A stretch of DNA of 64,000 nucleotides from Syntrophorhabdales bacterium. Lineage in GTDB: Bacteria > Desulfobacterota > Syntrophorhabdia > Syntrophorhabdales > WCHB1-27. Every line of letters begins with the position of its first letter. The first letter of the stretch is position 1. Positions 33,503-45,687 of the stretch are shown in pieces. The position numbers and the translations under genes are program-made. The notes under the pieces were generated by a model. The model was not told the DNA's origin. It searched no databases and was given only the letters and a program-made list of their open reading frames with translations. The stretch covers positions 4,780 through 68,779 of the forward strand of contig DATKNH010000013.1 of assembly GCA_035541455.1 (NCBI GenBank), written 5' to 3'.

Positions 33503-33811
33503 TTATTTCTTGCGTTCATCAGTCCTATCCTTAAGGTATTTCTTGTACTCCTTCAACAGGATATAGGCATACTCTCTACGGACGCGGCCTGAGGAAGGGA
33601 TATAGTTCCTCATCGCTTCCAGCCTTGTGATGATCTCCTCTGCAGTGGCATCGTTGGCTTTGCGGTCCTCTGCGTGGAGTTCGGCCAGTATTTCGTCCAG
33701 GCCAAACACGCCGGCCTGCGTATCATCAGCAAATTTCAATATGCGCCAACTAACTGGTGGCGGGGTGTAGTCGTCCCCTCAGTCTGCTCAACCGGCATCA
33801 AAGTGTGCCAC
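33503..33811 (-). CDS. Candidate small selenoprotein with N-terminal U-x-x-U motif (two in-frame TGA codons)
   Basis: GAAGGAGG lies 8 nt upstream of GTG 33811. The frame reads VAHFDAG-TGA-AD-TGA-GDDYTPPPVSWRI and runs in frame into the 78-aa track ORF. That ORF has only a TTG start and no RBS. TGA codons are at 33790-33788 and 33781-33779. Confidence 0.45.
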
Positions 33812-33847: not shown

Positions 33848-34189
33848 TCATCTCGGGTAAGCCGCAACGACAGCGATGAAGGCATTATCTTTGCCTGTAT
33901 TGGTGAACGCATGGGGTACGCCTGCGGGGAGCCATATCGCATCCCACGTCTTCACCGCTCTTTCTTCGTCGCCCACTTTCATCGACCCTTCGCCTGAAAG
34001 CATGAAATAGACTTCCTCTACAGCATCCACATGCTCTTCGAGGGTATTGCCGGGTGGCACCACTGCCCACGCAAAAAATTCCATGGATTTCATAAAATGA
34101 GAAGTAAGCAGCATGCGGGCAATGCCTCCGCGATGAGCTACGTAAGTTGTTCTTTCGGCTTCCGGGCTTTCTACATTCACGACGATCAT
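33848..34189 (-). CDS. Cupin-domain protein
   Basis: 113 aa from MIVVNVESPE (AAGGAG RBS). GNTLEEHVDAVEEVYFMLSGEGSMKVGDEE...IWLPAGVPHAFTNTG is a cupin motif pair. Confidence 0.75.
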   Translation of the reverse strand: MIVVNVESPEAERTTYVAHRGGIARMLLTSHFMKSMEFFAWAVVPPGNTLEEHVDAVEEVYFMLSGEGSMKVGDEERAVKTWDAIWLPAGVPHAFTNTGKDNAFIAVVAAYPR

Positions 34190-34341
34190 TTCTTGTGCTC
34201 CTTTGGATCGGGGTTGCTGAATTATAGCATCCGCTGAGACGGTGTCAAGCGTGCTGCGAGCCCTATGCAATCCATATTCAATCATTGACAACAGGGGCGG
34301 GAGGCGCAATACTAACATAGAAAAAATGAATCGACACGGAC

Positions 34342-34367: not shown

Positions 34368-34380
34368 TAGGAGGTGAAGT

Positions 34381-34623
34381 ATGGAAAGCGACAAGAAGGT
34401 TCTGATCTACTCGACGCCGACCTGACCGCACTGCAAGAGGGCGAAAAAGTTCCTCGAGGAGAATGGTATCTCCTTTCAAGACGTGGATGTTGCAGCAGAT
34501 AAAACAGCACGCGAAGAGATGTCCCGGAAAGCAGGACAGATGGTAGTACCTGTTTTCGATATCAACGGAACAATTGTGGTCGGATTTTCTGAGAGCAAAT
34601 TGAAGGAAGCTCTCGGGCTCTAA
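34381..34623 (+). CDS. Glutaredoxin-like (NrdH/YruB-type) selenoprotein, redox motif U-P-H-C
   Basis: MESDKKVLIYSTPT-TGA-PHCKRAKKFLEENGISFQDVDVAADKTAREEMSRKAGQMVVPVFDINGTIVVGFSESKLKEALGL. TGA (34423-34425) sits at the first Cys position of CPxC. GGAGGTG RBS. The frame stays open to TAA at 34621. Confidence 0.8.
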
Positions 34624-34647
34624 TCTCTCTTTTCTGTGGGGTCTTAC

Positions 34648-35559
34648 ATGTACGATGTGGCCATCGTCGGCGCCGGACCTGCGGGCCTGACAGCAGCAGT
34701 CTATAGCGCAAGGAAGAAGCTGAGCGTACTCTTGATCAGTAAGGATGTGGGCGGCCAGACACTCTGGACGAACGAGATAGAAAACTATATGGGTTATCAG
34801 TTTATAGAGGGAGCGGAGCTCATTGAGAAATTCGAGAGGCAGGTACGCCAGTTTCCCATAGATGTGAAAATAGAAGAAGAGGTTGTCGGTTTAGAAAGAG
34901 TGGAGGGCGGCTTCGGGTTACAAACGGCAGGAGCAGGAAGCTACCAGGCAAAGACAGTGATTATTGCCAGCGGTAAACGGCCTCGGTCGCTTGGCGTTCC
35001 AGGAGAAGAGCGCTTGCGGGGTCGGGGAGTCACCTACTGTTCCACGTGTGATGGCCCGCTGTTCGAGGGAATGAAAGTGGCTGTGATCGGCGGCGGCAAC
35101 TCGGCCGTAGAAGCGGTCATCGATATGCTGAAGATTGCAGAACATGTGTATATGATTTCGCTTACGCCCCTGACGTGCGACCAGATCCTTCATGAACGGG
35201 TCAAAGAAGGCACGAATGTTACAGTCTTCACTGAACACGAAACCCAGGAGGTGCTGGGTGATTCTTCTGTGTCAGGCATCCGCATCAAGGATCTCAAAAC
35301 GGGTGAGGAGCGGACACTGGAAGTACAAGGAGTCTTTGTTGAAATCGGATTAATTCCCAACTCTGATCTGGCGAGGGACCTGCTCGGGCTCAATAAGGTT
35401 CGTGAGATCGAGGTGAACTGTTCCGGAGAGACCGGGGTTCCGGGTTTGTTTGCAGCCGGAGACGTCACTGATGTTCCTGAAAAGCAGATTGTTGTTGCAG
35501 CAGGCGAGGGAGCCAAGGCTGCCCTGCAGGCCTACCGTTATCTTCAAAAGTTCGGATAG
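34648..35559 (+). CDS. Thioredoxin reductase / AhpF-C-terminal-like FAD pyridine-nucleotide-disulfide oxidoreductase
   Basis: MYDVAIVGAGPAGLTAAVY (FAD), redox motif GVTYCSTCDG, VAVIGGGNSAVEA (NAD(P)), GLFAAGDVT. Starts 25 nt after the Grx-like gene. Confidence 0.8.
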   Translation: MYDVAIVGAGPAGLTAAVYSARKKLSVLLISKDVGGQTLWTNEIENYMGYQFIEGAELIEKFERQVRQFPIDVKIEEEVVGLERVEGGFGLQTAGAGSYQAKTVIIASGKRPRSLGVPGEERLRGRGVTYCSTCDGPLFEGMKVAVIGGGNSAVEAVIDMLKIAEHVYMISLTPLTCDQILHERVKEGTNVTVFTEHETQEVLGDSSVSGIRIKDLKTGEERTLEVQGVFVEIGLIPNSDLARDLLGLNKVREIEVNCSGETGVPGLFAAGDVTDVPEKQIVVAAGEGAKAALQAYRYLQKFG

Positions 35560-37198: not shown

Positions 37199-38221
37199 CT
37201 AGTGCGACTTTAGATACTCGAGGCAAAACTTAAGGACTTCATCGCCGGGAAGTCCTTTTGCCTTCATGTTATTCGCGTACTCATCCAGCAGGGGCCTTAC
37301 CTGGGCAGCCCATCGCGCGTCTTCCTCTTTTGAGAGGGCTATGATTTTGCTACCCCGCGCCTGTACCAGATCCATGGCTTCTTTGTCTATCTCATCCCAT
37401 GCCTTGCCCTCTTTCTCGATCCACTCCTCGTTGATCTTCTCGATTATTTTCTGATCCACAGGAGAGATGGAATTCCACTTCGCCTTGTTCATGACGACAA
37501 AATGTGCAGAGGTGTAAGCCGCCCCGTAATCCAGCGTATGGCTGCTGACGACTTCTGCCAGCTTCCATCCTTTCATCGCCTCAAAAGGACAAAGAATGGC
37601 ATCTGCGACGCCTTTGGAGAGGGCGTCGTATGACTCACCCATTGGCATGCCGACAGGCGCGCCCCCAAGAGCCAGAGCAATGTTCGCTGCTACACCTTGA
37701 GATCTGATCTTGAGACCTTTGACATCTTCGAGCTTCATGACCGGTTTCTTGCTGTGAAGGAGACCCGGGCCGTGGCTGTAAAAATAGAGGACCTTCGTCT
37801 CATCCCATTCCTTAGGCTTAAACTTGTTGTAGAATGCATTGGTCATGTGCGTTGCCTGCGTGGCGCTCTTGTAACCGAGAGGGAGACCGACAACCTCGGT
37901 GAGCGGAAACTTTCCTCTGGTATAGGCCGCATCAGCGAGACCGATGTCGGCGATGCCCTTAACCAAGCTGTCGTATGTCTGCACGGCAGGCGTAAGCGTG
38001 TTGTTGGGGTACACCGTTACCTTCACCCGTCCATTGGTCCTCTTTTCAACCTCCTTACACCAGTCATTGACTACCTGACTCTGCCGGTGCGGAGCCGGAA
38101 ACATGGTCGAATAGCGGAGCGTAATGGTTTTTTCTTCGGCTGCGCCTCCCTGACTAGGGATGAGGCAGATAAGAAAAGCCAGCATGATAAGACCGATGCC
38201 AACAACAGAAAACTTTTTCAT
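37199..38221 (-). CDS. dctP: TRAP transporter substrate-binding protein, DctP family (divergent member)
   Basis: 340 aa with a signal peptide. TLRYSTMFPAPHRQSQVVNDWCKEVEKRTNGRVKVTVYPNNTL is DctP-like. AAGGAGG RBS. Confidence 0.8.
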   Translation of the reverse strand: MKKFSVVGIGLIMLAFLICLIPSQGGAAEEKTITLRYSTMFPAPHRQSQVVNDWCKEVEKRTNGRVKVTVYPNNTLTPAVQTYDSLVKGIADIGLADAAYTRGKFPLTEVVGLPLGYKSATQATHMTNAFYNKFKPKEWDETKVLYFYSHGPGLLHSKKPVMKLEDVKGLKIRSQGVAANIALALGGAPVGMPMGESYDALSKGVADAILCPFEAMKGWKLAEVVSSHTLDYGAAYTSAHFVVMNKAKWNSISPVDQKIIEKINEEWIEKEGKAWDEIDKEAMDLVQARGSKIIALSKEEDARWAAQVRPLLDEYANNMKAKGLPGDEVLKFCLEYLKSH

Positions 38222-38247
38222 AACAATTCCTCCTTCGTAGTGAATAC

Positions 38248-38373
38248 AGGTTAAGGATAGAACAAGGTGAAGGCAGAAGCAGGCAGAGGAAAAAACGAAA
38301 TAAAGGTTGAGACAAAGCGTACACCACTTTCGTTTTTATCTTAACCTTCGCTTCAGCCTTTACCTCAACCTGC
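38248..38373. repeat. Intercistronic hairpin repeat, copy E2
   Basis: Left arm AGGTTAAGGATAGAACAAGGTGAAGGCAGAAGC pairs with right arm CGCTTCAGCCTTTACCTCAACCT. An inner AAAAACGAAA / TTTCGTTTTT pair is present. Shares 10-mers with E1 (ACCTCAACCT, TTTCGTTTTT) and words with E3 (AGGTTAAGG, AGGTGAAGGC). Confidence 0.75.
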
Positions 38374-38397
38374 TTTATCTTTTTCCTGTTTTCTGTC

Positions 38398-39792
38398 TTA
38401 GACCAGGTCCTCCGGATTTGGAATAAACTTCTTCAGATCTATCCGTTTCATTACATCCTCAGGTATAGCTGCCACAGGGGGCAGATCCTTGCGGAACGGC
38501 TTTGCGGTCGCGTCTATGCCCACTTTTGTCACGACAGCCTCTTGCGCTGACGACAGATCAAGGTCCGTACCGAGCACGCCCGGCAGGATCATTACGTCCC
38601 TGTCTGCCTGCACCCTTGTGGCGAGCGCCCAGGTCATTTGGGCACCATTGTCCAGGTCGATGTCGGTATCAACGCAGACAACGTACTTGAGGTACAGGTC
38701 ATTGGCAAATGCCGCAAGGATAGCCTGTTTTGGCTGCCCCGCATGTTTCTTATCGATTTGAATAAACCCGTACCACCAACCTGCTGCCGCGATGAATTTG
38801 AATTTCTTTACGTCGGGTACGGCCTCTTTAATTTTGCGGTTCATAAAGGAATGTTGCGGGATACGGCCCATCAGCATACCCTTGCTCGGCCAGGCTCCCA
38901 TGTCGTGCACGATCGGGTTCTTCCTATGGGTTATCGCTGTGATCTTTACAGGGTGGCGCATGGCCACCTGGTGGTACTTGGTGAAATCACCCCACGGGCC
39001 TTCCTGCTCCCGGACACCCGGGGGGATGACGCCTTCTATGATGATCTCGGCACGTGCGGGCACAAGTACGTCGCTTGTCTCGCATCTCACCACCTCAAGG
39101 GGCTCTCCCATCAGGCTTCCCGCAATGTCAAATTCTGAAGGTGGATGGCTCACACGGCTCTGAAAAGCGGTAGCCCACGCAGGATGAAGCCCTATGGCAA
39201 ATGCGATAGGCATCGGCTCGTTGCGTTCCATGTAATCATTATAGATGTGCCAGAAATGACGACCGGGCGTGATGTGAGTTACACCGAGGTGCGGCTTTTT
39301 TACCATGAAGCGGTAGTGAGAGCAATGGGGAGCATTTATCTTTCTATCCATCACTATGCCCACCGCCCTTGTGAGATAAGGCGCTTCGCCCTTGTGATGA
39401 GTGATAAAAGGGAAACGCGTCATATCCGCCTTTTTGCCCGTGAGTACAACATCCCTGCAAGGAGCATCTTCTTTCTTGATCTCCTTTGCGGGATACTTAT
39501 TCAGCCGGATTGCCTCCTCTTCCTTCTCGCCGTAAAAGTCTTCAACTCTTTGCGGAGGGATACCAAGGGCGAGGCTGTACTTGGTGGCGCTGGTCTCGGT
39601 ATTACATACGACAGGCGTGCTGTACCCTTTCACCTTCTCGAAGAGAACCATGGGGTATTTGCCCATAAGGTCCAGTTTCTTTACTATTGCGGTGATCTCA
39701 TACTTGGGATCAACCTCCCGCGTGACCCTCACGAACTCCTGCGGCAGCTCTCTTTCGCAATCCGCCATGAACGTCCTTAAATCTCTCGCCAT
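38398..39792 (-). CDS. UbiD-family (prFMN-dependent) decarboxylase, second distant paralog
   Basis: About 464 aa from MARDLRTFMADCE (AGGAGG RBS). UbiD-like N-terminus ...YPMVLFEKVKGY and family-typical length. Confidence 0.85.
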   Translation of the reverse strand: MARDLRTFMADCERELPQEFVRVTREVDPKYEITAIVKKLDLMGKYPMVLFEKVKGYSTPVVCNTETSATKYSLALGIPPQRVEDFYGEKEEEAIRLNKYPAKEIKKEDAPCRDVVLTGKKADMTRFPFITHHKGEAPYLTRAVGIVMDRKINAPHCSHYRFMVKKPHLGVTHITPGRHFWHIYNDYMERNEPMPIAFAIGLHPAWATAFQSRVSHPPSEFDIAGSLMGEPLEVVRCETSDVLVPARAEIIIEGVIPPGVREQEGPWGDFTKYHQVAMRHPVKITAITHRKNPIVHDMGAWPSKGMLMGRIPQHSFMNRKIKEAVPDVKKFKFIAAAGWWYGFIQIDKKHAGQPKQAILAAFANDLYLKYVVCVDTDIDLDNGAQMTWALATRVQADRDVMILPGVLGTDLDLSSAQEAVVTKVGIDATAKPFRKDLPPVAAIPEDVMKRIDLKKFIPNPEDLV

Positions 39793-39833
39793 TAATAAGC
39801 CCTCCTTAAGGAACACATTTCACGCTAGAGTAA

Positions 39834-40811
39834 CTACTTCTTCCAAGCGCCGATTTCTTTCAGATATTTTTCCGCTCCCGGGTGAAAAGGAACAGGTGTG
39901 GCCTTCGTCATATTCTCAATTGTAAAATCACCTGTTGTCGAAGCGTGGATCGCATAGTAGTCCTGCCGGTGTTCCCAGAGATTTTTCAGGAATCGATATA
40001 CAAGATCTTCACTCACGTCAGCATGCGTGAAGATGCTGGTGGCAAATCCGTAGACCGGCGTATCCTGGTCCATTCCTTTGTATGATTTTGCTTTGATGAT
40101 CCTCTTGTAATAGTAAGGGTGTTCCGGAAGTATCTTGTTAAATGCCTGTTCATCCACCGGTACCACGCGTGCGGGCGTAAGCTGTGAAAGCTCCATGTAG
40201 GAGGGCATCGGATAAGCTCCTCCAAGAAAGCCACCGTCCAGGCTCCCGTTCTGTATGCCCTCGACTACTTCTTTGAAGACATAGTAGTACGGTTTGAAAT
40301 CGTTTTTTGTCACACCATGCGCTTCAAAAAAAAGAAGAGCGCTTGTGGAGACAGTGCTGCCCGGCCCTCCGATGCCTATGCGCTTGCCTTTGGCATCTGC
40401 AAAGGATTTGATGGGGCCCCTGGCAGGTACAGCAAAGTACTGGTCCGATCCGTTGATAAAACATATCGCCCGCAATGTTGAGAAGGGCTTACCCGCGTAT
40501 TCGCCAAGCCCCTTATACGCACGATAGCCGTCAGGCGTGCCGAAAAGAGCGAATGCCGGTTTTTTGCCTGCCTCCCTCTGCATCATGCGGCGGACCATCT
40601 CCATGGTTCCTGTGGCTGCCTCATGAACGAAGTTGACATCGGTCATGTATTTATTGGTAACTGCCGCCACCCCGGCGCCGAGCACGTAGACTGTTCCCCC
40701 TGAGGGCGGCGTATATAAAGGAGCAAGTTCCGCAGCTCGGGATGTGCTCGTTGCCAGTACCGTGACTGCGAATATTAAGCTCACTAAGGTGATCAGGATG
40801 ATATCTTTCAT
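39834..40811 (-). CDS. TAXI-family TRAP solute receptor
   Basis: Start at MKDIILI (GGGAGGA RBS) with a signal peptide. GGTVYVLGAGVAAVTNKY...RIGIGGPGSTVSTSALLFFEAHGV is the TAXI/NMT1-like pattern. Confidence 0.75.
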   Translation of the reverse strand: MKDIILITLVSLIFAVTVLATSTSRAAELAPLYTPPSGGTVYVLGAGVAAVTNKYMTDVNFVHEAATGTMEMVRRMMQREAGKKPAFALFGTPDGYRAYKGLGEYAGKPFSTLRAICFINGSDQYFAVPARGPIKSFADAKGKRIGIGGPGSTVSTSALLFFEAHGVTKNDFKPYYYVFKEVVEGIQNGSLDGGFLGGAYPMPSYMELSQLTPARVVPVDEQAFNKILPEHPYYYKRIIKAKSYKGMDQDTPVYGFATSIFTHADVSEDLVYRFLKNLWEHRQDYYAIHASTTGDFTIENMTKATPVPFHPGAEKYLKEIGAWKK

Positions 40812-40905
40812 TTTGATCCTCCCACGCTCTTGCTGGTCGCTTGTCTCCTGCAAGATGCTCAAGGCTGTTCACCGCTTACCCCTGACTGCTCACTTGCTGC
40901 TGCTC

Positions 40906-42201
40906 TTAGGCCACTCCCGGTATGATATTGCCCCCTGAGGGGAAGATCGCAACATCAGCCTGCGGCATCTTGTTCGCAGCCATATCCACTGCCTCGGGGA
41001 GCGTGCGAGCGTGAGTGAACTTCATCATCCGTACGGTCTCTGTCGGCAGCCCTTCGGTGACGTGTATCACGTCAAACTTCTCTGCGAGTTCCTTGAAGAA
41101 GACCACCTGCATAATATACGAGATGCCAAACGAGGTTAGCTGGTCGGGAATCTTCCCGGCGATCAACCTGCGGTGAAAATCAGTGGCGGTTTCAGAACTC
41201 GCCATCTCCTGGACGAGAGGCAGTATCGGACCGGCCTCCTTTTGAGGGGCGACCCAGATGATGATGCCTCCCGAACGGGTGCAGTAGCCGGCCATGGTCA
41301 GGGCCTTGGTAGCCTGCACGGCGATTTCCAGGGGATACGCCGACGTGATCGTCACATCAGCGACCTTGGCAAGAGGAACGAAGTAAAGGGACGCCGCGAA
41401 CTTGGCAGCCTCTCTGTGCTCAGCCACCGTTTCTCCTGCGAACGCGCGAATGATTTCTTTCCTGTCGTTGATGACGAGATCGAGCTTGAACGCGAGCCGT
41501 GCCAGTCGTCCTGCGTCGGTGATCTCTTCGTAAAAAGGATTGCCGTCCATCACGTTTACTTTGGCATATCGATGACGAATCCAGGCGAAATGATGATCTG
41601 CTACTGCCCGATAGGAACAGACGCCGGGCATTATAATCTTGTTTCCGCCACCGAAGCCTGCAGTGGGATGCGGCATACACTCACCAACGCCCACGATCAG
41701 GTCAGCAAAGGCCACGTGAGGGTTGATCTCGATCAGAGCGCCCCTGTGGGTTCGACCGATGACAACGTTTTGTGTGGAGTAGGGATCGTGGGAGACGAGC
41801 CGTTCACCCAACCGTTTTGCGACTTCCTCGCCCGCCTTTTTCTTCAGCTGTTCATATGATAGGACCGGGTGTGTTCCCAGGGCACATACCGCAGTCATGC
41901 GCGAATCAGGAATCCCCGCGCGGTTAAGGCGGTTCATCAATTCAGGCAGCGCCAGGTGTGCGGGTGTCGGCCGCTGAAGATCGTCGAACAGCAGCACGAC
42001 ATCCATCCCGGGCTTAGCAAGCTCCTCCAGCCTTGGCCCTCCTACGGGATTGTCGAGCGCCCTCTTGATTTCGGCTACAGGATCGGCTACGCCTGGAACT
42101 GTCGGCTTGTCCTGATCAGAGAGTACTTTCCACCCCGGGGGTAAAGAGAAGCACATCTGCTTTCCCTCGCAGATGACGTAACGTTCACGTGCCTCGGCCA
42201 T
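40906..42201 (-). CDS. LarA-family (nickel-pincer nucleotide-dependent) 2-hydroxyacid racemase/epimerase homolog
   Basis: 431 aa. ALGTHP plus CMPHPTAGFGGGNKIIMPG correspond to the LarA catalytic His and the H..GF.GG.K cofactor-tethering Lys motif (DUF2088 domain). Confidence 0.75.
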   Translation of the reverse strand: MAEARERYVICEGKQMCFSLPPGWKVLSDQDKPTVPGVADPVAEIKRALDNPVGGPRLEELAKPGMDVVLLFDDLQRPTPAHLALPELMNRLNRAGIPDSRMTAVCALGTHPVLSYEQLKKKAGEEVAKRLGERLVSHDPYSTQNVVIGRTHRGALIEINPHVAFADLIVGVGECMPHPTAGFGGGNKIIMPGVCSYRAVADHHFAWIRHRYAKVNVMDGNPFYEEITDAGRLARLAFKLDLVINDRKEIIRAFAGETVAEHREAAKFAASLYFVPLAKVADVTITSAYPLEIAVQATKALTMAGYCTRSGGIIIWVAPQKEAGPILPLVQEMASSETATDFHRRLIAGKIPDQLTSFGISYIMQVVFFKELAEKFDVIHVTEGLPTETVRMMKFTHARTLPEAVDMAANKMPQADVAIFPSGGNIIPGVA

Positions 42202-42204
42202 CTA

Positions 42205-43209
42205 TCACCTCGTCTTGGTAAGTAATTTCTTCAACTCGGGAGTTGTCTTGGGAGCTTTTTCCATCAACTCTGCCCATCCCGCATCATACGCTGTTTTCAG
42301 GAATTTTTCGCTTTCAGCAGGGGAGAGTTGGATGACCTCGATGCCTTCCTTCTGCAGTATAGGGCGTTCCTTCTTCTTCAGATCGTCGAAGAGTGCGACT
42401 GCTTTTTTCTCGCCTTCCACTGCAGCCTCATTCAGGATATCCTGAAGCTTCTTCGGCAAACCATTGAATGTCTTCTGGTTGATGAGGACGGGATTGGGCA
42501 CGTTGTAGAACCCCGGCTCGACGACGTATTTCGTTACCTTGTCCCAGCCCCAGTCGCGGATCCCGACAGAGGGCCAGCAATAACCGTCCACAACATGGCG
42601 TTCCAGTGCCGCGTATACTTCTGTCGGTGGTATCACCACCGGGTTCCCGCCCAGGGTCTTTATTGCCTGCAGCTGGTTTGCAGATACCCTGATGTTCAAC
42701 CCTTTTAAATCGGCGCTCTTGATCGGCTTAACCAGATAAAGGTGAAATTTGAGATCGAGTCCGAGCCTCGCCTGGTAACGAAGCCCTAGCCTCTGTTCAT
42801 GGAGCGTGTTAAAGTACGCCCAGGCTCCGCTCGCCCTTTCCTCCATGGGTGTCATCGTGGAAAGCTTCATTGCATCCGCTTCGGGGAGCACCGAGAGATA
42901 GTAGGCGTTTGTAGTGAAGACCATATCCACCATGCCGCGCTGCGCAGCTGCCACCTGCTCGTTTGTCTTCACAGCTTCCGGGCCGCCGATGTACTGAATT
43001 TTCAACTCACCCGGCGCCTTCTTCGCTACAAGCTGTTCGACCAGGTCGGTGAAAATGAAGAAAGCCTGGTTATCTGTGGCTGTTTTTGGCCAGGCGGTCA
43101 CTGCCTTGAGGGTGACAGATTCAGCAGCCCGAGCAACAGGGGTGTGGACGGTAAATACAGAAGCCATGAAAATAACTGTGCAGAAAAGAATGAATGATCC
43201 CTTTTTCAT
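42205..43209 (-). CDS. dctP: TRAP substrate-binding protein, DctP family (paralog group member 1)
   Basis: 334 aa with a signal peptide. Close paralog of 43290-44294 and 57166-58158 (shared blocks GGPEAVK, LGGNPVV, VVDGY). Confidence 0.85.
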   Translation of the reverse strand: MKKGSFILFCTVIFMASVFTVHTPVARAAESVTLKAVTAWPKTATDNQAFFIFTDLVEQLVAKKAPGELKIQYIGGPEAVKTNEQVAAAQRGMVDMVFTTNAYYLSVLPEADAMKLSTMTPMEERASGAWAYFNTLHEQRLGLRYQARLGLDLKFHLYLVKPIKSADLKGLNIRVSANQLQAIKTLGGNPVVIPPTEVYAALERHVVDGYCWPSVGIRDWGWDKVTKYVVEPGFYNVPNPVLINQKTFNGLPKKLQDILNEAAVEGEKKAVALFDDLKKKERPILQKEGIEVIQLSPAESEKFLKTAYDAGWAELMEKAPKTTPELKKLLTKTR

Positions 43210-43289
43210 CGGTGGCCTCCCTTCAAGTTTCTGTGCAGCCCGTATTTGTCTGAGCCGGACCGCCTTTACTCTACCGTGATATACCTGAC

Positions 43290-44294
43290 TTACTTTCCGG
43301 TCTTCTTTGTCAGTAACTTTTGCAGTTCAGGGCCTGTTTTCGGGTTGTTCTTTATCACGTCTTTCCAGCCCTCGTCGTAGGCTATTTTGAGGAATTTCTC
43401 CTTCTCGGCCGGAGGAAGCTCGATCACCTGGATACCGGCCTTTTTCAGAAGAGGGATCTCTTTCTTGCCTTCCTCCTCATAATAGGCGACAGTCTTTCTT
43501 TCCGACTCCATGGCGGCCTCTGTGAGCACATCCTTGAATTTCTTAGGCAGCGCATTCCATGCTTTCAGATTCATGATGAGAGGATGCGGTCCTGAATAAA
43601 ATCCCGTATCGACGATGTACTTGGTCTGCTTCTCCCATCCCCACTCCCGGATCGTCACGAGGACAAAGCAATATCCATCTACCACTTTGCGCTCGAGCGC
43701 CTGGTACACGTCGCTCGGTGGAATGACCACTGGATTACCGCCAAGGCCCTTGATGACCTGAAGATACATGGGAGAGACTCGAATGTTGAACCCTTTAAGG
43801 TCGGCCGTCTTTATCGGTCGTGTCAGGTAAAGGTAAAACGGCGCATCTATACCGAGTCTACCCAGAAGGTAAAGGCCTTTCTTTTCGTGCAAGTCATTGA
43901 AGTACGCCCAGGCTCCGTTTGCCCTCTCCTCCCATGGTTTGAAGTCCGAGAGCTTCATAGCATCGACCTCGGGAACTTCAGAGACATAGTACGCGTTGGT
44001 CGTATGGACGATATCAACCATGCCGGTCTGAGCAGCGTGCGCCTGGTCCTGGATCTTGACCGCTTCGGGACCACCGACGAGGTTCAGTTTCAGCTCGCCG
44101 GGATATTTCTTCGCCACCTGTTGCTCGACGCTGTCCATGAAATAAAAAAGTGATTTGTTGTCGGTGGTGTTTTTTGGCCAGGCAGTGACGACCTTCAGCG
44201 TGATTGTCTGTGCGTTGGCGATACCGTGTATCGTACAAGCAAAAAAGAATAAGGCAACGACTGCAGCAAAAAGAAAGCCTGCTTTCTGCTTCAT
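43290..44294 (-). CDS. dctP: TRAP substrate-binding protein, DctP family (paralog group member 2)
   Basis: 334 aa. Collinear similarity with the two other members along the full length. Confidence 0.85.
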   Translation of the reverse strand: MKQKAGFLFAAVVALFFFACTIHGIANAQTITLKVVTAWPKNTTDNKSLFYFMDSVEQQVAKKYPGELKLNLVGGPEAVKIQDQAHAAQTGMVDIVHTTNAYYVSEVPEVDAMKLSDFKPWEERANGAWAYFNDLHEKKGLYLLGRLGIDAPFYLYLTRPIKTADLKGFNIRVSPMYLQVIKGLGGNPVVIPPSDVYQALERKVVDGYCFVLVTIREWGWEKQTKYIVDTGFYSGPHPLIMNLKAWNALPKKFKDVLTEAAMESERKTVAYYEEEGKKEIPLLKKAGIQVIELPPAEKEKFLKIAYDEGWKDVIKNNPKTGPELQKLLTKKTGK

Positions 44295-44364
44295 AATTCC
44301 TCCTCATTTATTGTTTTCTGCCTCACTAGACCCGTGTCCCTTGACCCCTGATCCTATTTTTCAG

Positions 44365-45687
44365 TTACTTCACCATACCCATAAGTGCCGGAACCACAGT
44401 TGCTATTGATGGTACGGCGAGCACGATCCCAATGCAGAGCAAATCTATTATGACGTAAGGGGTTACCGCCCTCCATATATCTCCCATCGTTACGTCGGGA
44501 GGCGCCACGCCTTTCATCACGAAGAGCGTAACACCAAAGGGTGGGGTAATCAAGCCTGTCTCAAGGGCGATCAGCATCATCACGCCGAACCAAACCGTGT
44601 TGAACCCGAGCGCAGTGACCACGGGCATGTAGATAGGAATGGTGATCATCATGATCGCCACCGTTTCCATGAAACAGCCCATGATGAGCACGACCACGAG
44701 CATACCGACGAGTATTATCAACGGGTGAATGCTGAGGCCGGTGATATAGCCGGTCATACCGGCAGCGGCACCGGTGAAGGCCAGTATCTCGCCATACGTG
44801 CTCGACACGATGATGATCATGAATATCATGGACGTCACTTTCACCGTGCCCATGACCGACTTCTTCATTATGTCCCACGTGAGGCGTCTGTAACATATGG
44901 CAAGGATGAAGGAGCCCAATGTTCCTGTTGCCGCAGCTTCGGTCGGCGTTGCCACACCTAGGAAGATAAGGCCTATGACCATGAAGATGATGAAGCCAAG
45001 AGGCAGCAGATAGACGAAAGTGACCCGTATTTTTTCCTTCAACGGCACGTGTGCGACTTCATACATAGGCGCTTCATTGGGGAAGAGATGGCACCATCCC
45101 AGGACATATACAAAATAGAGGGATGACATGATAATGCCCGGCAATATGCCGGCGATCAGGAGCTGCCCCACATCGATATTCGCGAGGCTCGCAAGCACCA
45201 CCGTGAGGGCGTTAGGAGGGATAAGGGCGTCTACCGTTCCAACTCCCATGAGTGGGCCGAGGCTCATGTTCTTGCTGTACCCCCTTTTCAGCATATCGGG
45301 AAGCAGGATTGTACCGAGGAGTGCGCATGTGGCAATCGTGGAACCGGAGAGTGCTCCTATGATCACTCCCATGATGACTGCAAGGATCGAGAGCCTGCCT
45401 TTGAGCTTGCCGAGCCATTTGTCAAGGACATTGACTGCATCGAGTCCCATGCCCGAGTGAAAGATAAGCTCTCCCATGAGAATGAAGAAGGGCACGGGGA
45501 GCAGGGTAAATGTGGTGATGGAGGTGAAAACACCCGTGACCACGCCTATCAGGCCCGGTATCCCGCCGAGGAAGAAGTAGGCGGCCACCATGTTGACAAT
45601 GAGAAAGGCAAAGGCTATGGGCACGCCTGTGAGGAGCAGGAATACCATGCCTCCGAAGAGTATACATATGGTCGTATACCATTCCAT
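44365..45687 (-). CDS. dctM: TRAP transporter large permease
   Basis: 440 aa, highly hydrophobic. Typical DctM length and N-terminus (MEWYTTICILFGGMVFLLLTGVPIAFAF). Confidence 0.9.
   Translation of the reverse strand: MEWYTTICILFGGMVFLLLTGVPIAFAFLIVNMVAAYFFLGGIPGLIGVVTGVFTSITTFTLLPVPFFILMGELIFHSGMGLDAVNVLDKWLGKLKGRLSILAVIMGVIIGALSGSTIATCALLGTILLPDMLKRGYSKNMSLGPLMGVGTVDALIPPNALTVVLASLANIDVGQLLIAGILPGIIMSSLYFVYVLGWCHLFPNEAPMYEVAHVPLKEKIRVTFVYLLPLGFIIFMVIGLIFLGVATPTEAAATGTLGSFILAICYRRLTWDIMKKSVMGTVKVTSMIFMIIIVSSTYGEILAFTGAAAGMTGYITGLSIHPLIILVGMLVVVLIMGCFMETVAIMMITIPIYMPVVTALGFNTVWFGVMMLIALETGLITPPFGVTLFVMKGVAPPDVTMGDIWRAVTPYVIIDLLCIGIVLAVPSIATVVPALMGMVK

Follow-up and report, generated by a model that had tools for sequence, protein, structure and literature searches.

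The redoxin gene and the flavoprotein behind it

The window, by which we mean the whole 64-kb stretch analysed (all positions are counted from its first letter), carries on its forward strand a short gene for a glutaredoxin-like protein with one in-frame TGA, followed directly by a gene for a flavoprotein:

34285..34313, + strand: promoter-like TTGACA-17-AATACT ahead of the redoxin-flavoprotein operon (consensus scan, 10/12; a consensus match only)
34370..34376, + strand: ribosome-binding site GGAGGTG, 4 nt 5′ of the ATG (read from the sequence)
34381..34623, + strand: predicted selenocysteine (Sec) glutaredoxin-like redoxin of the YruB/Cp9 type, 80 codons (translation, Pfam, NCBIfam TIGR02196, aligned Cys and Sec orthologs)
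34423..34425, + strand: in-frame UGA at codon 15, predicted Sec (conserved TGA; TGC in Cys orthologs)
34648..35559, + strand: low-Mr thioredoxin reductase (TrxR)-family flavoprotein, 303 aa, similar to the C-terminal half of AhpF (Pfam, NCBIfam and PDB matches)
35038..35049, + strand: redox disulfide motif C131-S-T-C134 (sequence)
35155..35178, + strand: I-S-L-T-P-L-T-C at the position of the NADPH 2′-phosphate motif H-R-R-x-x-x-R (alignments to E. coli TrxB and to AhpF)

The redoxin frame starts with the ATG at 34381 and ends with a TAA at 34621-34623. An earlier note on this DNA had described an 80-codon frame with a GGAGGTG ribosome-binding site and a full-length glutaredoxin (Grx) fold, in which a TGA, in the place of the first Cys codon of a CPxC motif, is the sole internal stop and gives U-P-H-C. 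All these statements hold: apart from the TGA at 34423-34425, in the context S-T-P-T-U-P-H-C-K, the frame has no internal stop, and the 80-aa product would have the active site U15-P-H-C18, the cis-Pro motif V56-P57-V58 and G68-F. With U replaced by C, the protein matched Pfam Glutaredoxin (E 4e-19) and passed the YruB model, NCBIfam TIGR02196, with 94.0 bits (curated cut-off 88.55). YruB proteins are defined by 75-80 residues, a C-P-[YWH..]-C type site after strand 1, a conserved Pro and G-F (PMC3720550), and the redoxin agrees with the YruB/Cp9 description in size and motifs, V-P-V and G-F included. Identity as an NrdH-redoxin was rejected on score (50.5 bits, cut-off 85.75), on the U-P-H-C motif and on the lack of nrd genes nearby; the score for classical Grx3 (TIGR02181) was likewise too low for membership (57.7 bits, cut-off 90). 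The C-terminal Sec of the UXX-star kind was absent from the whole Sec-redoxin family.

The flavoprotein ORF starts 24 nt after the redoxin stop. It matched Pfam Pyr_redox_2 (9e-44) and contains a GGGNSA nucleotide-binding motif and no N-terminal redox domain. Against NCBIfam AhpF (TIGR03140) it scored 335 bits, over model positions 213-512 only and with a cut-off of 502.9. We rejected full AhpF identity for a protein of 303 aa, as against ~520 aa, that has no N-terminal double-Trx-fold CxxC domain. TrxB (TIGR01292) was not assigned either, the score being 300.5 bits for a cut-off of 343.45 and HRRxxxR being absent. The best PDB match was 1fl2, the AhpF catalytic core, with 254.7 bits, as compared with 214 for the best TrxR. 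Two structures, 6gna and 5j60, which we take to be ferredoxin-dependent or NADPH-independent homologs, were distant (~122-125 bits).

At the NADPH site, S-L-T-P-L-T-C of the flavoprotein aligns with H-R-R-D-G-F-R of E. coli TrxR, and AhpF has L-E-F-A-P-E-M-K-A at this position. Because the flavoprotein is closer to the C-terminal half of AhpF than to TrxR and is devoid of HRRxxxR, motif comparison and analogy make NADH a likelier donor than NADPH.

A flavoprotein of 303 aa with C-S-T-C had been announced behind the redoxin, and it is present, with the motif at residues 131-134. As a diagnostic motif, C-S-T-C did not survive comparison: orthologous partners carry CATC (L006, 79% identical), CAIC, CAVC, CEVC, CSIC and CSVC. 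Since both middle residues vary among orthologs, we rejected C-S-T-C as the mark of a special reductase.

Reading of the in-frame UGA

Four independent assemblies (L001-L004) agree on the redoxin TGA, which is retained in the 85%-identical orthologs L006, L007 and L049 as well as in L052. At least 120 species genomes, from Chloroflexota, Deltaproteobacteria/Syntrophaceae, Bacillota and Gemmatimonadota, match the pattern TPT-TGA-P-x-C...VPV, and all of those listed (120/120) are intact in-frame Grx-like ORFs, well above what chance would give. The TGA is thus genuine and not an assembly error. In the Sec column of the alignment, Cys was found in 16 of 17 protein-search homologs, the 17th (P0002) being a call with W for TGA; L008 and L209-L211 carry TGC.

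The frame is also conserved beyond the UGA. For redoxin codons 34-80, comparison with L006 gave dN 0.11, dS 1.59 and dN/dS 0.07, and across ortholog comparisons dN/dS was 0.05-0.07, that is, strong purifying selection. A dN/dS of ~0.07 in these codons indicates that the peptide 3′ of the TGA is translated. The redoxin accordingly presents two marks of a bacterial selenoprotein, a UGA where homologs carry Cys and a conserved frame downstream. From these sequence data we infer that Sec is inserted at the redoxin UGA.

Could the TGA simply terminate, the frame being either misassembled or a pseudogene in decay, so that only a peptide of 14 residues, or a C-terminal fragment of 46 aa (from the GTG at 34483), is made? 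Public gene calls look as this would predict: at L001-L005 standard callers give no gene or a fragment of 46-56 aa. The window, moreover, contains no selA, selB, selD or tRNA-Sec (ARAGORN; Pfam scans of 30 large ORFs), and the Sec-decoding capacity of the genome has therefore to be deduced from the redoxin and a neighbouring gene with two UGAs. To this reading are opposed the same TGA in four assemblies, its presence at the catalytic residue in at least 120 species with the frame always open to a full-length Grx fold, the low dN/dS downstream, and an RNA-level constraint on synonymous sites after the TGA (see below). We give termination next to no credence.

Read-through of the UGA by other means, with a near-cognate Trp or Cys or in a reassigned code, would yield a thiol or inactive redoxin. 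In its favour, the JGI caller translated the orthologous TGA as W, and Sec insertion into the redoxin is so far a prediction. The standard genetic code applies in the window, since TGA is the ordinary stop of 8 of its 35 long ORFs; a CxxC redoxin with Trp in place of its nucleophile would be inactive, and in homologs the Sec position aligns only with Cys. Downstream of the UGA, moreover, there is a hairpin under selection whose loop carries a G-U motif at a constant distance, as is typical of bacterial SECIS elements. At a distance of 600 bp a second gene contains two in-frame UGAs, with a conserved hairpin of its own. Such read-through is very improbable, if slightly less so than termination, and Sec insertion stands as the preferred reading.

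The second gene belongs to a divergent group upstream of the redoxin:

34221..34248, - strand: divergent promoter-like TTGACA-16-TATAAT with TG extension, for the cupin/U-x-x-U operon (consensus scan, 12/12)
33848..34189, - strand: Cupin_2 protein, 113 aa (Pfam Cupin_2, 4e-14), neighbour
33503..33811, - strand: predicted two-Sec protein, 102 codons, G-U-A-D-U-G (UGAs at 33788-33790 and 33779-33781), neighbour outside the redoxin system

Both ORFs that the earlier note had mentioned, the cupin (34189 to 33848) and the U-x-x-U frame (33811 to 33503), are present; the conserved SECIS-like hairpin of the latter lies at 33744-33762. A scan for split ORFs around TGA found no further selenoprotein genes in the window. 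The U-x-x-U gene represents an apparently undescribed two-selenocysteine family that often occurs in arsenic-resistance (ars) operons.

The same note had proposed that the redoxin-flavoprotein pair may serve the cupin and U-x-x-U proteins. This did not find support: by tblastn there was no U-x-x-U homolog among the 120 Sec-Grx loci listed, and we rejected a service to that protein on this ground. The cupin is syntenic only in L006, L210 and L211, and cupin/HAD synteny is confined to the immediate lineage.

It had also been claimed that no standard gene caller would report the redoxin. The ENA callers indeed skip it or give a 46-aa fragment; the JGI caller, on the other hand, reports an ortholog at full length, with W at the TGA. 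In every public gene call examined the gene is thus missing, cut to a fragment or given W for U, which makes the YruB-type U-P-x-C gene, with its occurrence in many species, a matter for annotation.

Two adjacent hairpins in the SECIS zone

Nucleotides of this region are numbered from the U of the redoxin UGA.

34426..34479, + strand: desert of synonymous substitutions, codons 16-33, the SECIS zone (substitution counts, dS)
34437..34455, + strand: hairpin A, nt 15-33, GAGGGC-GAAAAA-G-U-UCCUC (folds, recoding test, position of the family hairpin)
34456..34475, + strand: hairpin B, nt 34-53, GAGGAGA-AUGGUA-UCUCCUU, with a GGU loop (folding, recoding test, clade conservation)

Differences were depleted in the SECIS zone, with 1-2 in 57 nt as compared with 38-45 in the 180 nt outside (Fisher p ~1e-4). 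Codons 18-33 showed no synonymous change at all among the window, L006, L049 and L008. Values of dS were 0-0.11 in the zone and at least 1.6, up to saturation, in codons 34-80; for the older Cys orthologs dS over the SECIS-zone codons was 0.67-1.29.

A bacterial SECIS is a stem-loop shortly 3′ of the UGA with a G in a small apical loop (PMC1088965), and such a structure is found at the redoxin. The earlier note had put the SECIS at the stem-loop 34456-34475, at the far edge of the usual spacing. That stem-loop, hairpin B, is real and selected, and it does start 30 nt after the TGA. It is nevertheless only one of two hairpins, and the SECIS of the family, with its conserved G27-U28, lies upstream, at the position of hairpin A.

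Hairpin A, whose extended form covers 34431-34461, starts 11 nt after the UGA, an E. coli-like spacing, and contains the family-conserved G27-U28 (34449-34450) in its loop. It is weak (-4.9 kcal/mol) and yet more stable than 98.8-99.4% of synonymous recodings; its core is also kept in the Cys orthologs L209-L211. Hairpin B directly abuts it and, with -8.0 kcal/mol, is the most stable local element, better than 97% of synonymous recodings. Its loop comprises nt 41-46. All Sec orthologs of the window clade keep hairpin B, including L052, and the older Cys orthologs L209-L211 lack it.

Searches against Rfam returned no SECIS or other family, either over the whole window at the gathering threshold or in the region at E<=10, and we ascribed three weak matches to chance. 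RNAalifold returned no consensus for 118 Sec-family sequences because subfamilies shift the hairpin register by 1-3 nt. In its place we counted pairs in a fixed register, searched each sequence for hairpins and tested stability against synonymous recodings. Over 122 Sec-family sequences, structure at nt 12-42 was more stable than the recodings in 61% (median z -2.2), whereas nt 34-63, the region of hairpin B, appeared unselected in the rest of the family (median z -0.14). The family consensus hairpin showed compensatory changes at 6 of 8 pairs, and G27 occurred in 89 of 91 family sequences for 50.8 expected. The window clade forms 2 of the 8 pairs in this register.

Which structure would SelB bind? 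We put hairpin A at an even chance. That the SECIS is instead the distal hairpin B, with hairpin A as a spacer or relic, is a serious if less favoured possibility, for which its stability and its GGU loop speak, a loop of this type being a feature of the E. coli and Moorella SECIS. So does its distribution: it persists in every Sec ortholog of the clade, even in L052 whose hairpin A has lost G27, and is missing from the older Cys orthologs that retain the hairpin A core. The family data point the other way, as selection acts on structure at nt 12-42 and not at nt 34-63, and the selected G27-U28 sits in the loop of hairpin A. The distances do so too, for hairpin A begins exactly 11 nt after the UGA and the loop of hairpin B as far as 37 nt after it. 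A stacked pair as the binding element is the least probable of the three. As parts of a tandem SECIS, with both abutting hairpins selected, the proximal one may serve to place the GGU loop of hairpin B for SelB, twice as far from the UGA as is usual. The window clade presents a SECIS rebuilt as two selected hairpins side by side.

A putative electron relay and its relation to known systems

The redoxin and flavoprotein genes lie tail-to-head, and no terminator was found in the 24-nt gap between them. Of the 99 evaluable Sec loci among the matches listed, 18 have a flavoprotein gene that starts 210-260 nt beyond the UGA on the same strand; for the short 80-aa type the figure is 17 of 48 loci. 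The pairing is seen in both Chloroflexota and Deltaproteobacteria, and the flavoprotein directly follows Cys orthologs too. With ~18% of Sec-redoxin loci having an adjacent flavoprotein, other redoxin subfamilies must use a reductase encoded elsewhere. Neighbour clustering revealed no peroxiredoxin, methionine sulfoxide reductase (Msr) or other third partner that recurs in at least four pair loci.

We consider, with good confidence, that the two genes form an operon for a disulfide reductase relay dependent on selenium. Sec would be inserted at the UGA 34423-34425 by SelB and Sec-tRNA, guided by structure in the ~55 nt of mRNA that follow. The first gene would then provide an 80-residue thioredoxin-fold redoxin of the YruB/Cp9 type with Sec as nucleophile (U15-P-H-C18), and the second an FAD flavoprotein of 303 residues that belongs to the low-Mr TrxR family. 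Electrons would pass from NADH, in preference to NADPH, to FAD, the C131/C134 dithiol and the Sec15-Cys18 selenenylsulfide, and finally to disulfide or sulfenate substrates, for which peroxiredoxin, methionine sulfoxide reductase or other proteins are candidates. The free redoxin would take the part that in AhpF falls to a fused N-terminal domain, and in this it would resemble Cp9, which works with Cp34 in Clostridium pasteurianum. Both this electron flow and the targets of the redoxin are predictions.

A dedicated NAD(P)H to flavoprotein to Sec-Grx chain had already been suggested, and the conservation of the pair across two phyla and in Cys orthologs makes electron transfer from the flavoprotein to the redoxin the best reading; its NADPH part is weakened by S-L-T-P-L-T-C and the AhpF-like core, which favour NADH. 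The flavoprotein might instead be an NADH oxidase or peroxidase or act on another substrate, with the redoxin reduced by the housekeeping TrxR or a low-molecular-weight thiol. Its role as reductase of the redoxin is deduced from sequence, ~80% of the Sec-redoxin loci among the matches listed are without an adjacent flavoprotein, so that the family can use a reductase encoded elsewhere, and NrdH-type redoxins are reduced by ordinary TrxB. The gene arrangement argues against such a separation, being tight, uninterrupted by a terminator and kept in Chloroflexota and Deltaproteobacteria in Sec and Cys forms. So do an AhpF-like core lacking just the CxxC domain that a free redoxin would replace and the precedent of Cp34/Cp9 (PMC3720550). 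We judge a separate reductase improbable and retain the paired relay.

The Sec-YruB/AhpF-like pair may be widespread in strictly anaerobic Chloroflexota and Desulfobacterota and replace glutathione or thioredoxin systems there for particular targets. The two readings, an unusual tandem SECIS and a self-contained NADH-driven system of this kind, are tentative and rather doubtful. For the question of what selenium adds, L049 and P0001 form a natural Sec/Cys ortholog pair that differs in four residues. The redoxin-flavoprotein finding leaves current concepts unchanged, and the adjacent two-Sec family of ars operons is the more novel lead from the window.

Sec-glutaredoxins have been catalogued since 2005 (PMC1088965, PMC1794560, PMC13188914) and figure among the prokaryotic selenoprotein families with experimental support (same sources). 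Like the UxxC proteins of Geobacter sulfurreducens and Alkaliphilus/Clostridium oremlandii (Grx1), the window redoxin belongs to PF00462 and has its SECIS directly after the UGA. It is distant from the C. oremlandii Grx (4tr0, 4tr1; 33-37 bits), which is described as GSH-linked (PMC13188914), and is itself of the YruB/Cp9 subtype, below the Grx3 cut-off and paired with its own flavoprotein. With NrdH/TrxB it shares a small Grx-like fold and the proposed reduction by a TrxR-family flavoprotein, not glutathione. NrdH is recognized by C-[VMI]-Q-C and an nrdHIEF operon (PMC3720550); here the motif is U-P-H-C and there is no nrdIEF operon. Another free Sec thioredoxin-fold protein is thought to partner AhpF-like or TrxR-like reductases (PMC13188914) and is similar in this respect; from the TIGR02187 protein the redoxin differs in family and size (17.4 bits, cut-off 185). 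Along its full length the flavoprotein can be aligned with AhpF residues 213-515, including the CxxC-D-G-P-L-F context and the non-HRR site, but has CSTC for CPHC, no ~200-residue N-terminal double-Trx-fold with its second CxxC, and no ahpC nearby.

The closest parallel is the Cp34/Cp9 system, reportedly described by Reynolds et al. (2002) as a ~300-aa TrxR-like flavoprotein with a YruB redoxin. By analogy, the redoxin-flavoprotein pair is a selenocysteine version of this C. pasteurianum system. Cp9, the founding YruB protein, has its gene between those of an NADH-dependent TrxR (cp34) and a peroxiredoxin (cp20) and carries electrons between these two (PMC3720550, citing Reynolds et al. 2002). 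The window pair resembles this system (PMC3720550) in a TrxR-family flavoprotein of ~300 aa without the AhpF N-terminal domain and a YruB redoxin of 75-80 aa; the likeness to Cp34 is one of published description. The first active-site residue in the window is Sec, the order is redoxin then reductase, and no peroxiredoxin is adjacent. Relative to the Cp34-Cp9-Cp20 arrangement, the flavoprotein adjoins the redoxin, and a peroxiredoxin gene is neither in the window neighbourhood nor a recurrent neighbour. Since both Sec-glutaredoxins and the Cp34/Cp9 pair were known, the system is not new in kind; it extends the idea of the two-component reductase to a selenium version.

A redoxin gene with an in-frame TGA

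The redoxin gene lies on the plus strand (window positions):
34370-34376, plus strand: ribosome-binding site GGAGGTG, preceding the redoxin ORF
34381-34623, plus strand: predicted Sec YruB-type redoxin ORF of 80 codons, frame read from the sequence, ending in TAA
34423-34425, plus strand: in-frame TGA, codon 15 of the redoxin and its sole internal stop

The frame translates as MESDKKVLIYSTPT-U-PHCKRAKKFLEENGISFQDVDVAADKTAREEMSRKAGQMVVPVFDINGTIVVGFSESKLKEALGL. With Cys at position 15, the product matched Pfam Glutaredoxin (4e-19) and passed the curated cut-off of only one NCBIfam family, TIGR02196 (YruB, 94 bits vs 88.55); the NCBIfam NrdH (50.5 bits, cut-off 85.75) and Grx3 (57.7 bits, cut-off 90) models failed. 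The earlier note had correctly read the ORF, RBS, TGA and a flavoprotein with a C-S-T-C motif; of the NrdH/YruB-type fold that it proposed, YruB is retained and NrdH is not.

Three ENA assemblies, independent of one another, carry the 243-nt gene without any difference, and a JGI contig that covers the gene except for its first 24 nt matches as well, TGA included. The TGA was also kept in the orthologs L006, L007 and L049 (85% protein identity) and L052 (77%). The suggested alignment to Cys homologs placed Cys in the U column in 16 of 17 protein-database homologs (the 17th, P0002, is a JGI call with W), as well as in the orthologs L008 (TGC) and L209-L211. TGA terminates 8 of the 35 long ORFs in the window, indicating a standard code there, and purifying selection is strong downstream of the UGA (codons 34-80 vs L006, dN 0.11, dS 1.59). 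Conservation of the TGA, the Cys column, the standard code and purifying selection together make it very unlikely that the gene is a pseudogene, that the assembly is wrong or that the codon has been reassigned. Sec machinery was not found in the 64-kb window.

The Cys ortholog L008 (protein P0001) and the Sec ortholog L049 differ by four residues, and L008 retains both downstream hairpins unaltered despite its TGC. The Sec/Cys switch between them is very recent, and the two form a natural pair in which to test selenium's benefit.

We scanned GTDB species genomes with the DNA pattern T-P-T-TGA-P-x-C...V-P-V. At least 120 species genomes matched; all matches listed were intact Grx-like frames, and they spanned Chloroflexota, Deltaproteobacteria/Syntrophaceae, Bacillota and Gemmatimonadota. 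The prediction that gene callers would not report the redoxin failed for JGI's caller, which wrote the ortholog TGA as W, and held for other callers, which truncate or skip Sec genes. Some public calls likewise give W for the Sec UGA (P0002, from L006/L007, and P0065-P0067); in protein databases, full-length selenoproteins therefore pass for Trp variants.

Many Chloroflexota Sec-YruB members of the scan have a C-terminal extension of ~90 aa matching the DegP/HtrA PDZ region (TIGR02037 positions 226-322). Syntrophaceae members carry a C-terminal tail C-I-K-Q-R-[ST]-E-[VI], their genes usually adjoining a large ATPase, UvrA-like as judged by eye, and Gemmatimonadota members have a D-C-C-x-H tail. 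The flavoprotein is not adjacent in these subfamilies (examples among the scanned loci are L067, L021 and L044).

RNA structure downstream of the UGA

Nearly every family sequence carries a hairpin, typically GCGAAAGA-GUA-UCUUUCGC, with its loop 23-29 nt beyond the U of UGA. With the register fixed, 72% of cells pair, and 6 of the 8 pairs show compensatory changes. Across 122 sequences, nt 12-42 were stabler than synonymous recodings in 61% (median z -2.2), and nt 34-63 were not stabler (median z -0.14). The codon covering nt 25-27, where A or G is possible, ended in G in 89 of 91 cases (50.8 expected), which places a G27-U28 dinucleotide in the loop and agrees with the published rule that the apical loop of a SECIS is small and contains G (PMC1088965). 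In the window clade, only 2 of the 8 consensus pairs form, and two abutting hairpins are present instead:
34437-34455 (nt 15-33), plus strand: hairpin A, -4.9 kcal/mol, begins 11 nt after the UGA and contains G27-U28
34431-34461, plus strand: extended form of hairpin A, -8.2 kcal/mol
34456-34475 (nt 34-53), plus strand: hairpin B, -8.0 kcal/mol, loop AUGGUA

Each hairpin is stabler than 97-99% of synonymous recodings; hairpin B, the candidate of the earlier note, does exist, and hairpin A is selected as well. Codons 18-33 show zero synonymous changes among the window, L006, L049 and L008, and dS is 0-0.11 in this zone vs at least 1.6 on both flanks (near saturation; Fisher p about 1e-4). In the older Cys orthologs L209-L211 it is relaxed (0.67-1.29). 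The four amino-acid changes of L052 in the zone all fall in loops or terminal pairs. Rfam gave no match in the SECIS region. Hairpin stability, the synonymous desert and the ortholog pattern make an RNA element after the UGA well supported in the window clade.

Both hairpins are candidate SelB-binding elements. Bacterial SECIS elements obey a spacing rule of 11 nt, and the bSECIS range is 16-37 nt. Position and the G27-U28 motif point to hairpin A, and the core of this hairpin is retained in L209-L211; the Sec-vs-Cys contrast and a GGU loop speak for hairpin B, which is missing from these Cys orthologs and retained in the Sec ortholog L052, where G27 is lost.

The flavoprotein and the neighbouring genes

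34648-35559, plus strand: low-Mr TrxR-family flavoprotein, 303 aa (Pyr_redox_2, 9e-44), starting 24 nt past the redoxin stop

The redox motif is C131-S-T-C134 as first described, and was rejected as a diagnostic feature: the L006 partner has CATC and others CAIC, CAVC, CEVC, CSIC or CSVC. Among solved structures, the best match was to the C-terminal catalytic core of E. coli AhpF (1fl2, 254.7 bits); the best TrxR scored 214 bits; 6gna and 5j60, which we take to be ferredoxin-dependent or NADPH-independent homologs, scored about 122-125 bits. The NCBIfam scores for AhpF (positions 213-512, 335 bits) and TRX_reduct (300.5 bits) are both under cut-off, so the protein is not a canonical TrxB, and it is not a complete AhpF either. 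It has a GGGNSA motif, and its S-L-T-P-L-T-C aligns with H-R-R-D-G-F-R of E. coli TrxR, which binds the NADPH 2'-phosphate, and with E-F-A-P-E-M-K of AhpF (a presumed sequence of E. coli TrxB being used for the alignment). This replacement would make NADH the likelier donor.

Among the matches listed, 99 Sec loci extend far enough downstream, and in 18 of them a flavoprotein starts 210-260 nt past the UGA, on the same strand; for the short 80-aa type this holds in 17 of 48 loci, the paired loci being drawn from Chloroflexota and Deltaproteobacteria. It also lies directly 3' of the Cys orthologs P0003, P0011 and P0012. Gene structures, conservation and family assignments of the redoxin pair are direct observations. 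Neighbour clustering of the loci revealed no recurrent third gene, and no peroxiredoxin in particular.

Upstream, the window shares HAD hydrolase and cupin genes with L006, L210 and L211, a synteny at lineage level only. The divergent operon and the sigma-70-type promoter-like sites are:
33811->33503, minus strand: U-x-x-U ORF with two in-frame UGAs, 3' of the cupin gene, GTG start 5 nt after GAAGGAGGTGG
34248->34221, minus strand: perfect TTGACA-16-TATAAT with TG extension, facing the cupin/U-x-x-U operon
34285-34313, plus strand: TTGACA-17-AATACT, facing the redoxin operon

The two sites stand back-to-back, 37 bp apart, within a 190-nt divergent spacer, with no inverted repeat or operator between them. 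Among these loci the U-x-x-U gene is present in the window alone, being absent from L006, L210 and L211, and tblastn found no homolog in the 120 Sec-Grx loci among the matches listed; with the lineage-level cupin synteny, this comparison does not support the earlier proposal that the pair serves the cupin and U-x-x-U proteins. The U-x-x-U protein is unlinked to the redoxin pair.

It reads M-A-H-F-D-A-G-U-A-D-U-G-D-D-Y-T-P-P-P-V-S-W-R... Of its 96 database homologs, most are called without the N-terminus, at 77-79 aa; full-length calls have W at both TGA positions. Exactly two in-frame TGAs are present in every one of the 76 metagenome loci with the N-terminus on the contig, in the arrangements U-x-x-U, U-x-D-G-U or U-x-G-G-x-U; Cys forms (CC or CCC) seldom occur. 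The downstream hairpin CCNNC-AGUU[AG]-GNNGG was 80.5% paired vs 21-49% in slid controls; two of its pairs show AU<->GC compensations, and A-G-U-U is invariant in the 5-nt loop. No meaningful Pfam or NCBIfam match and no PDB fold match was obtained, and the family is unrecognisable in the table of the 2026 review (PMC13188914); apparently, this family with two selenocysteines had not been described. Acr3-type SBF transporters, LMW-PTP-type ArsC or ArsR are among the neighbours in 27 of 80 loci (by locus: Acr3-type SBF 18, MauE/DoxX 16, LMW-PTP ArsC 9, ArsR 4), with ThiS-like (9) and Met-rich 73-aa proteins (11), DUF1573, DsbD_TM and thioredoxin. Settings that resemble an arsenic-resistance operon are frequent; the window gene lies outside any ars context. 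Judged by its neighbours, the family would be a diselenol protein, so far undescribed, of arsenic/metalloid resistance operons, and a metalloid-binding role is suggested.

Elsewhere in the window (37199-45687 and 1249-2667) we observed TRAP transporter components (DctP x4 and DctM), two UbiD-family decarboxylases, a LarA-like protein, two 2-oxoacid:ferredoxin oxidoreductase gene sets and a GltD-like Fe-S flavoprotein, a gene set that typifies anaerobes degrading aromatic or organic acids and has no relation to the redoxin pair.

Comparison with known redox systems

According to Reynolds et al. 2002, the YruB protein of C. pasteurianum reportedly serves as the electron carrier that links an NADH-dependent TrxR-like protein to Prx. 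By analogy, we infer the electron transfer, donor and acceptors of the redoxin pair: electrons would pass from NADH to FAD, to Cys131/Cys134 of the flavoprotein, to the Sec15-Cys18 selenenylsulfide of the redoxin and on to disulfides or sulfenates of the substrates. In this scheme the free redoxin would stand in for the N-terminal domain that is fused in AhpF.

Catalogues have included Sec-glutaredoxins (PF00462, UxxC) since 2005, and these proteins are listed as selenoproteins with experimental support (PMC1088965, PMC1794560, PMC13188914). Solved structures exist for the C. oremlandii glutaredoxin, which is only distantly related to the window redoxin (33-37 bits). The 2026 review places Sec-Grx in a restricted set of bacterial species (PMC13188914); the YruB-type U-P-x-C selenoprotein, in at least 120 species-representative genomes, is found in many more. 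The closest functional model is C. pasteurianum Cp34/Cp9/Cp20, the founding YruB protein receiving electrons from an NADH-dependent TrxR-like protein and passing them to Prx (PMC3720550). Unlike Cp34/Cp9, the window locus carries the Sec form of the pair and is missing a Prx gene. Sec glutaredoxins and Cp34/Cp9-type pairs are already known; the window locus adds a Sec version of the pair.
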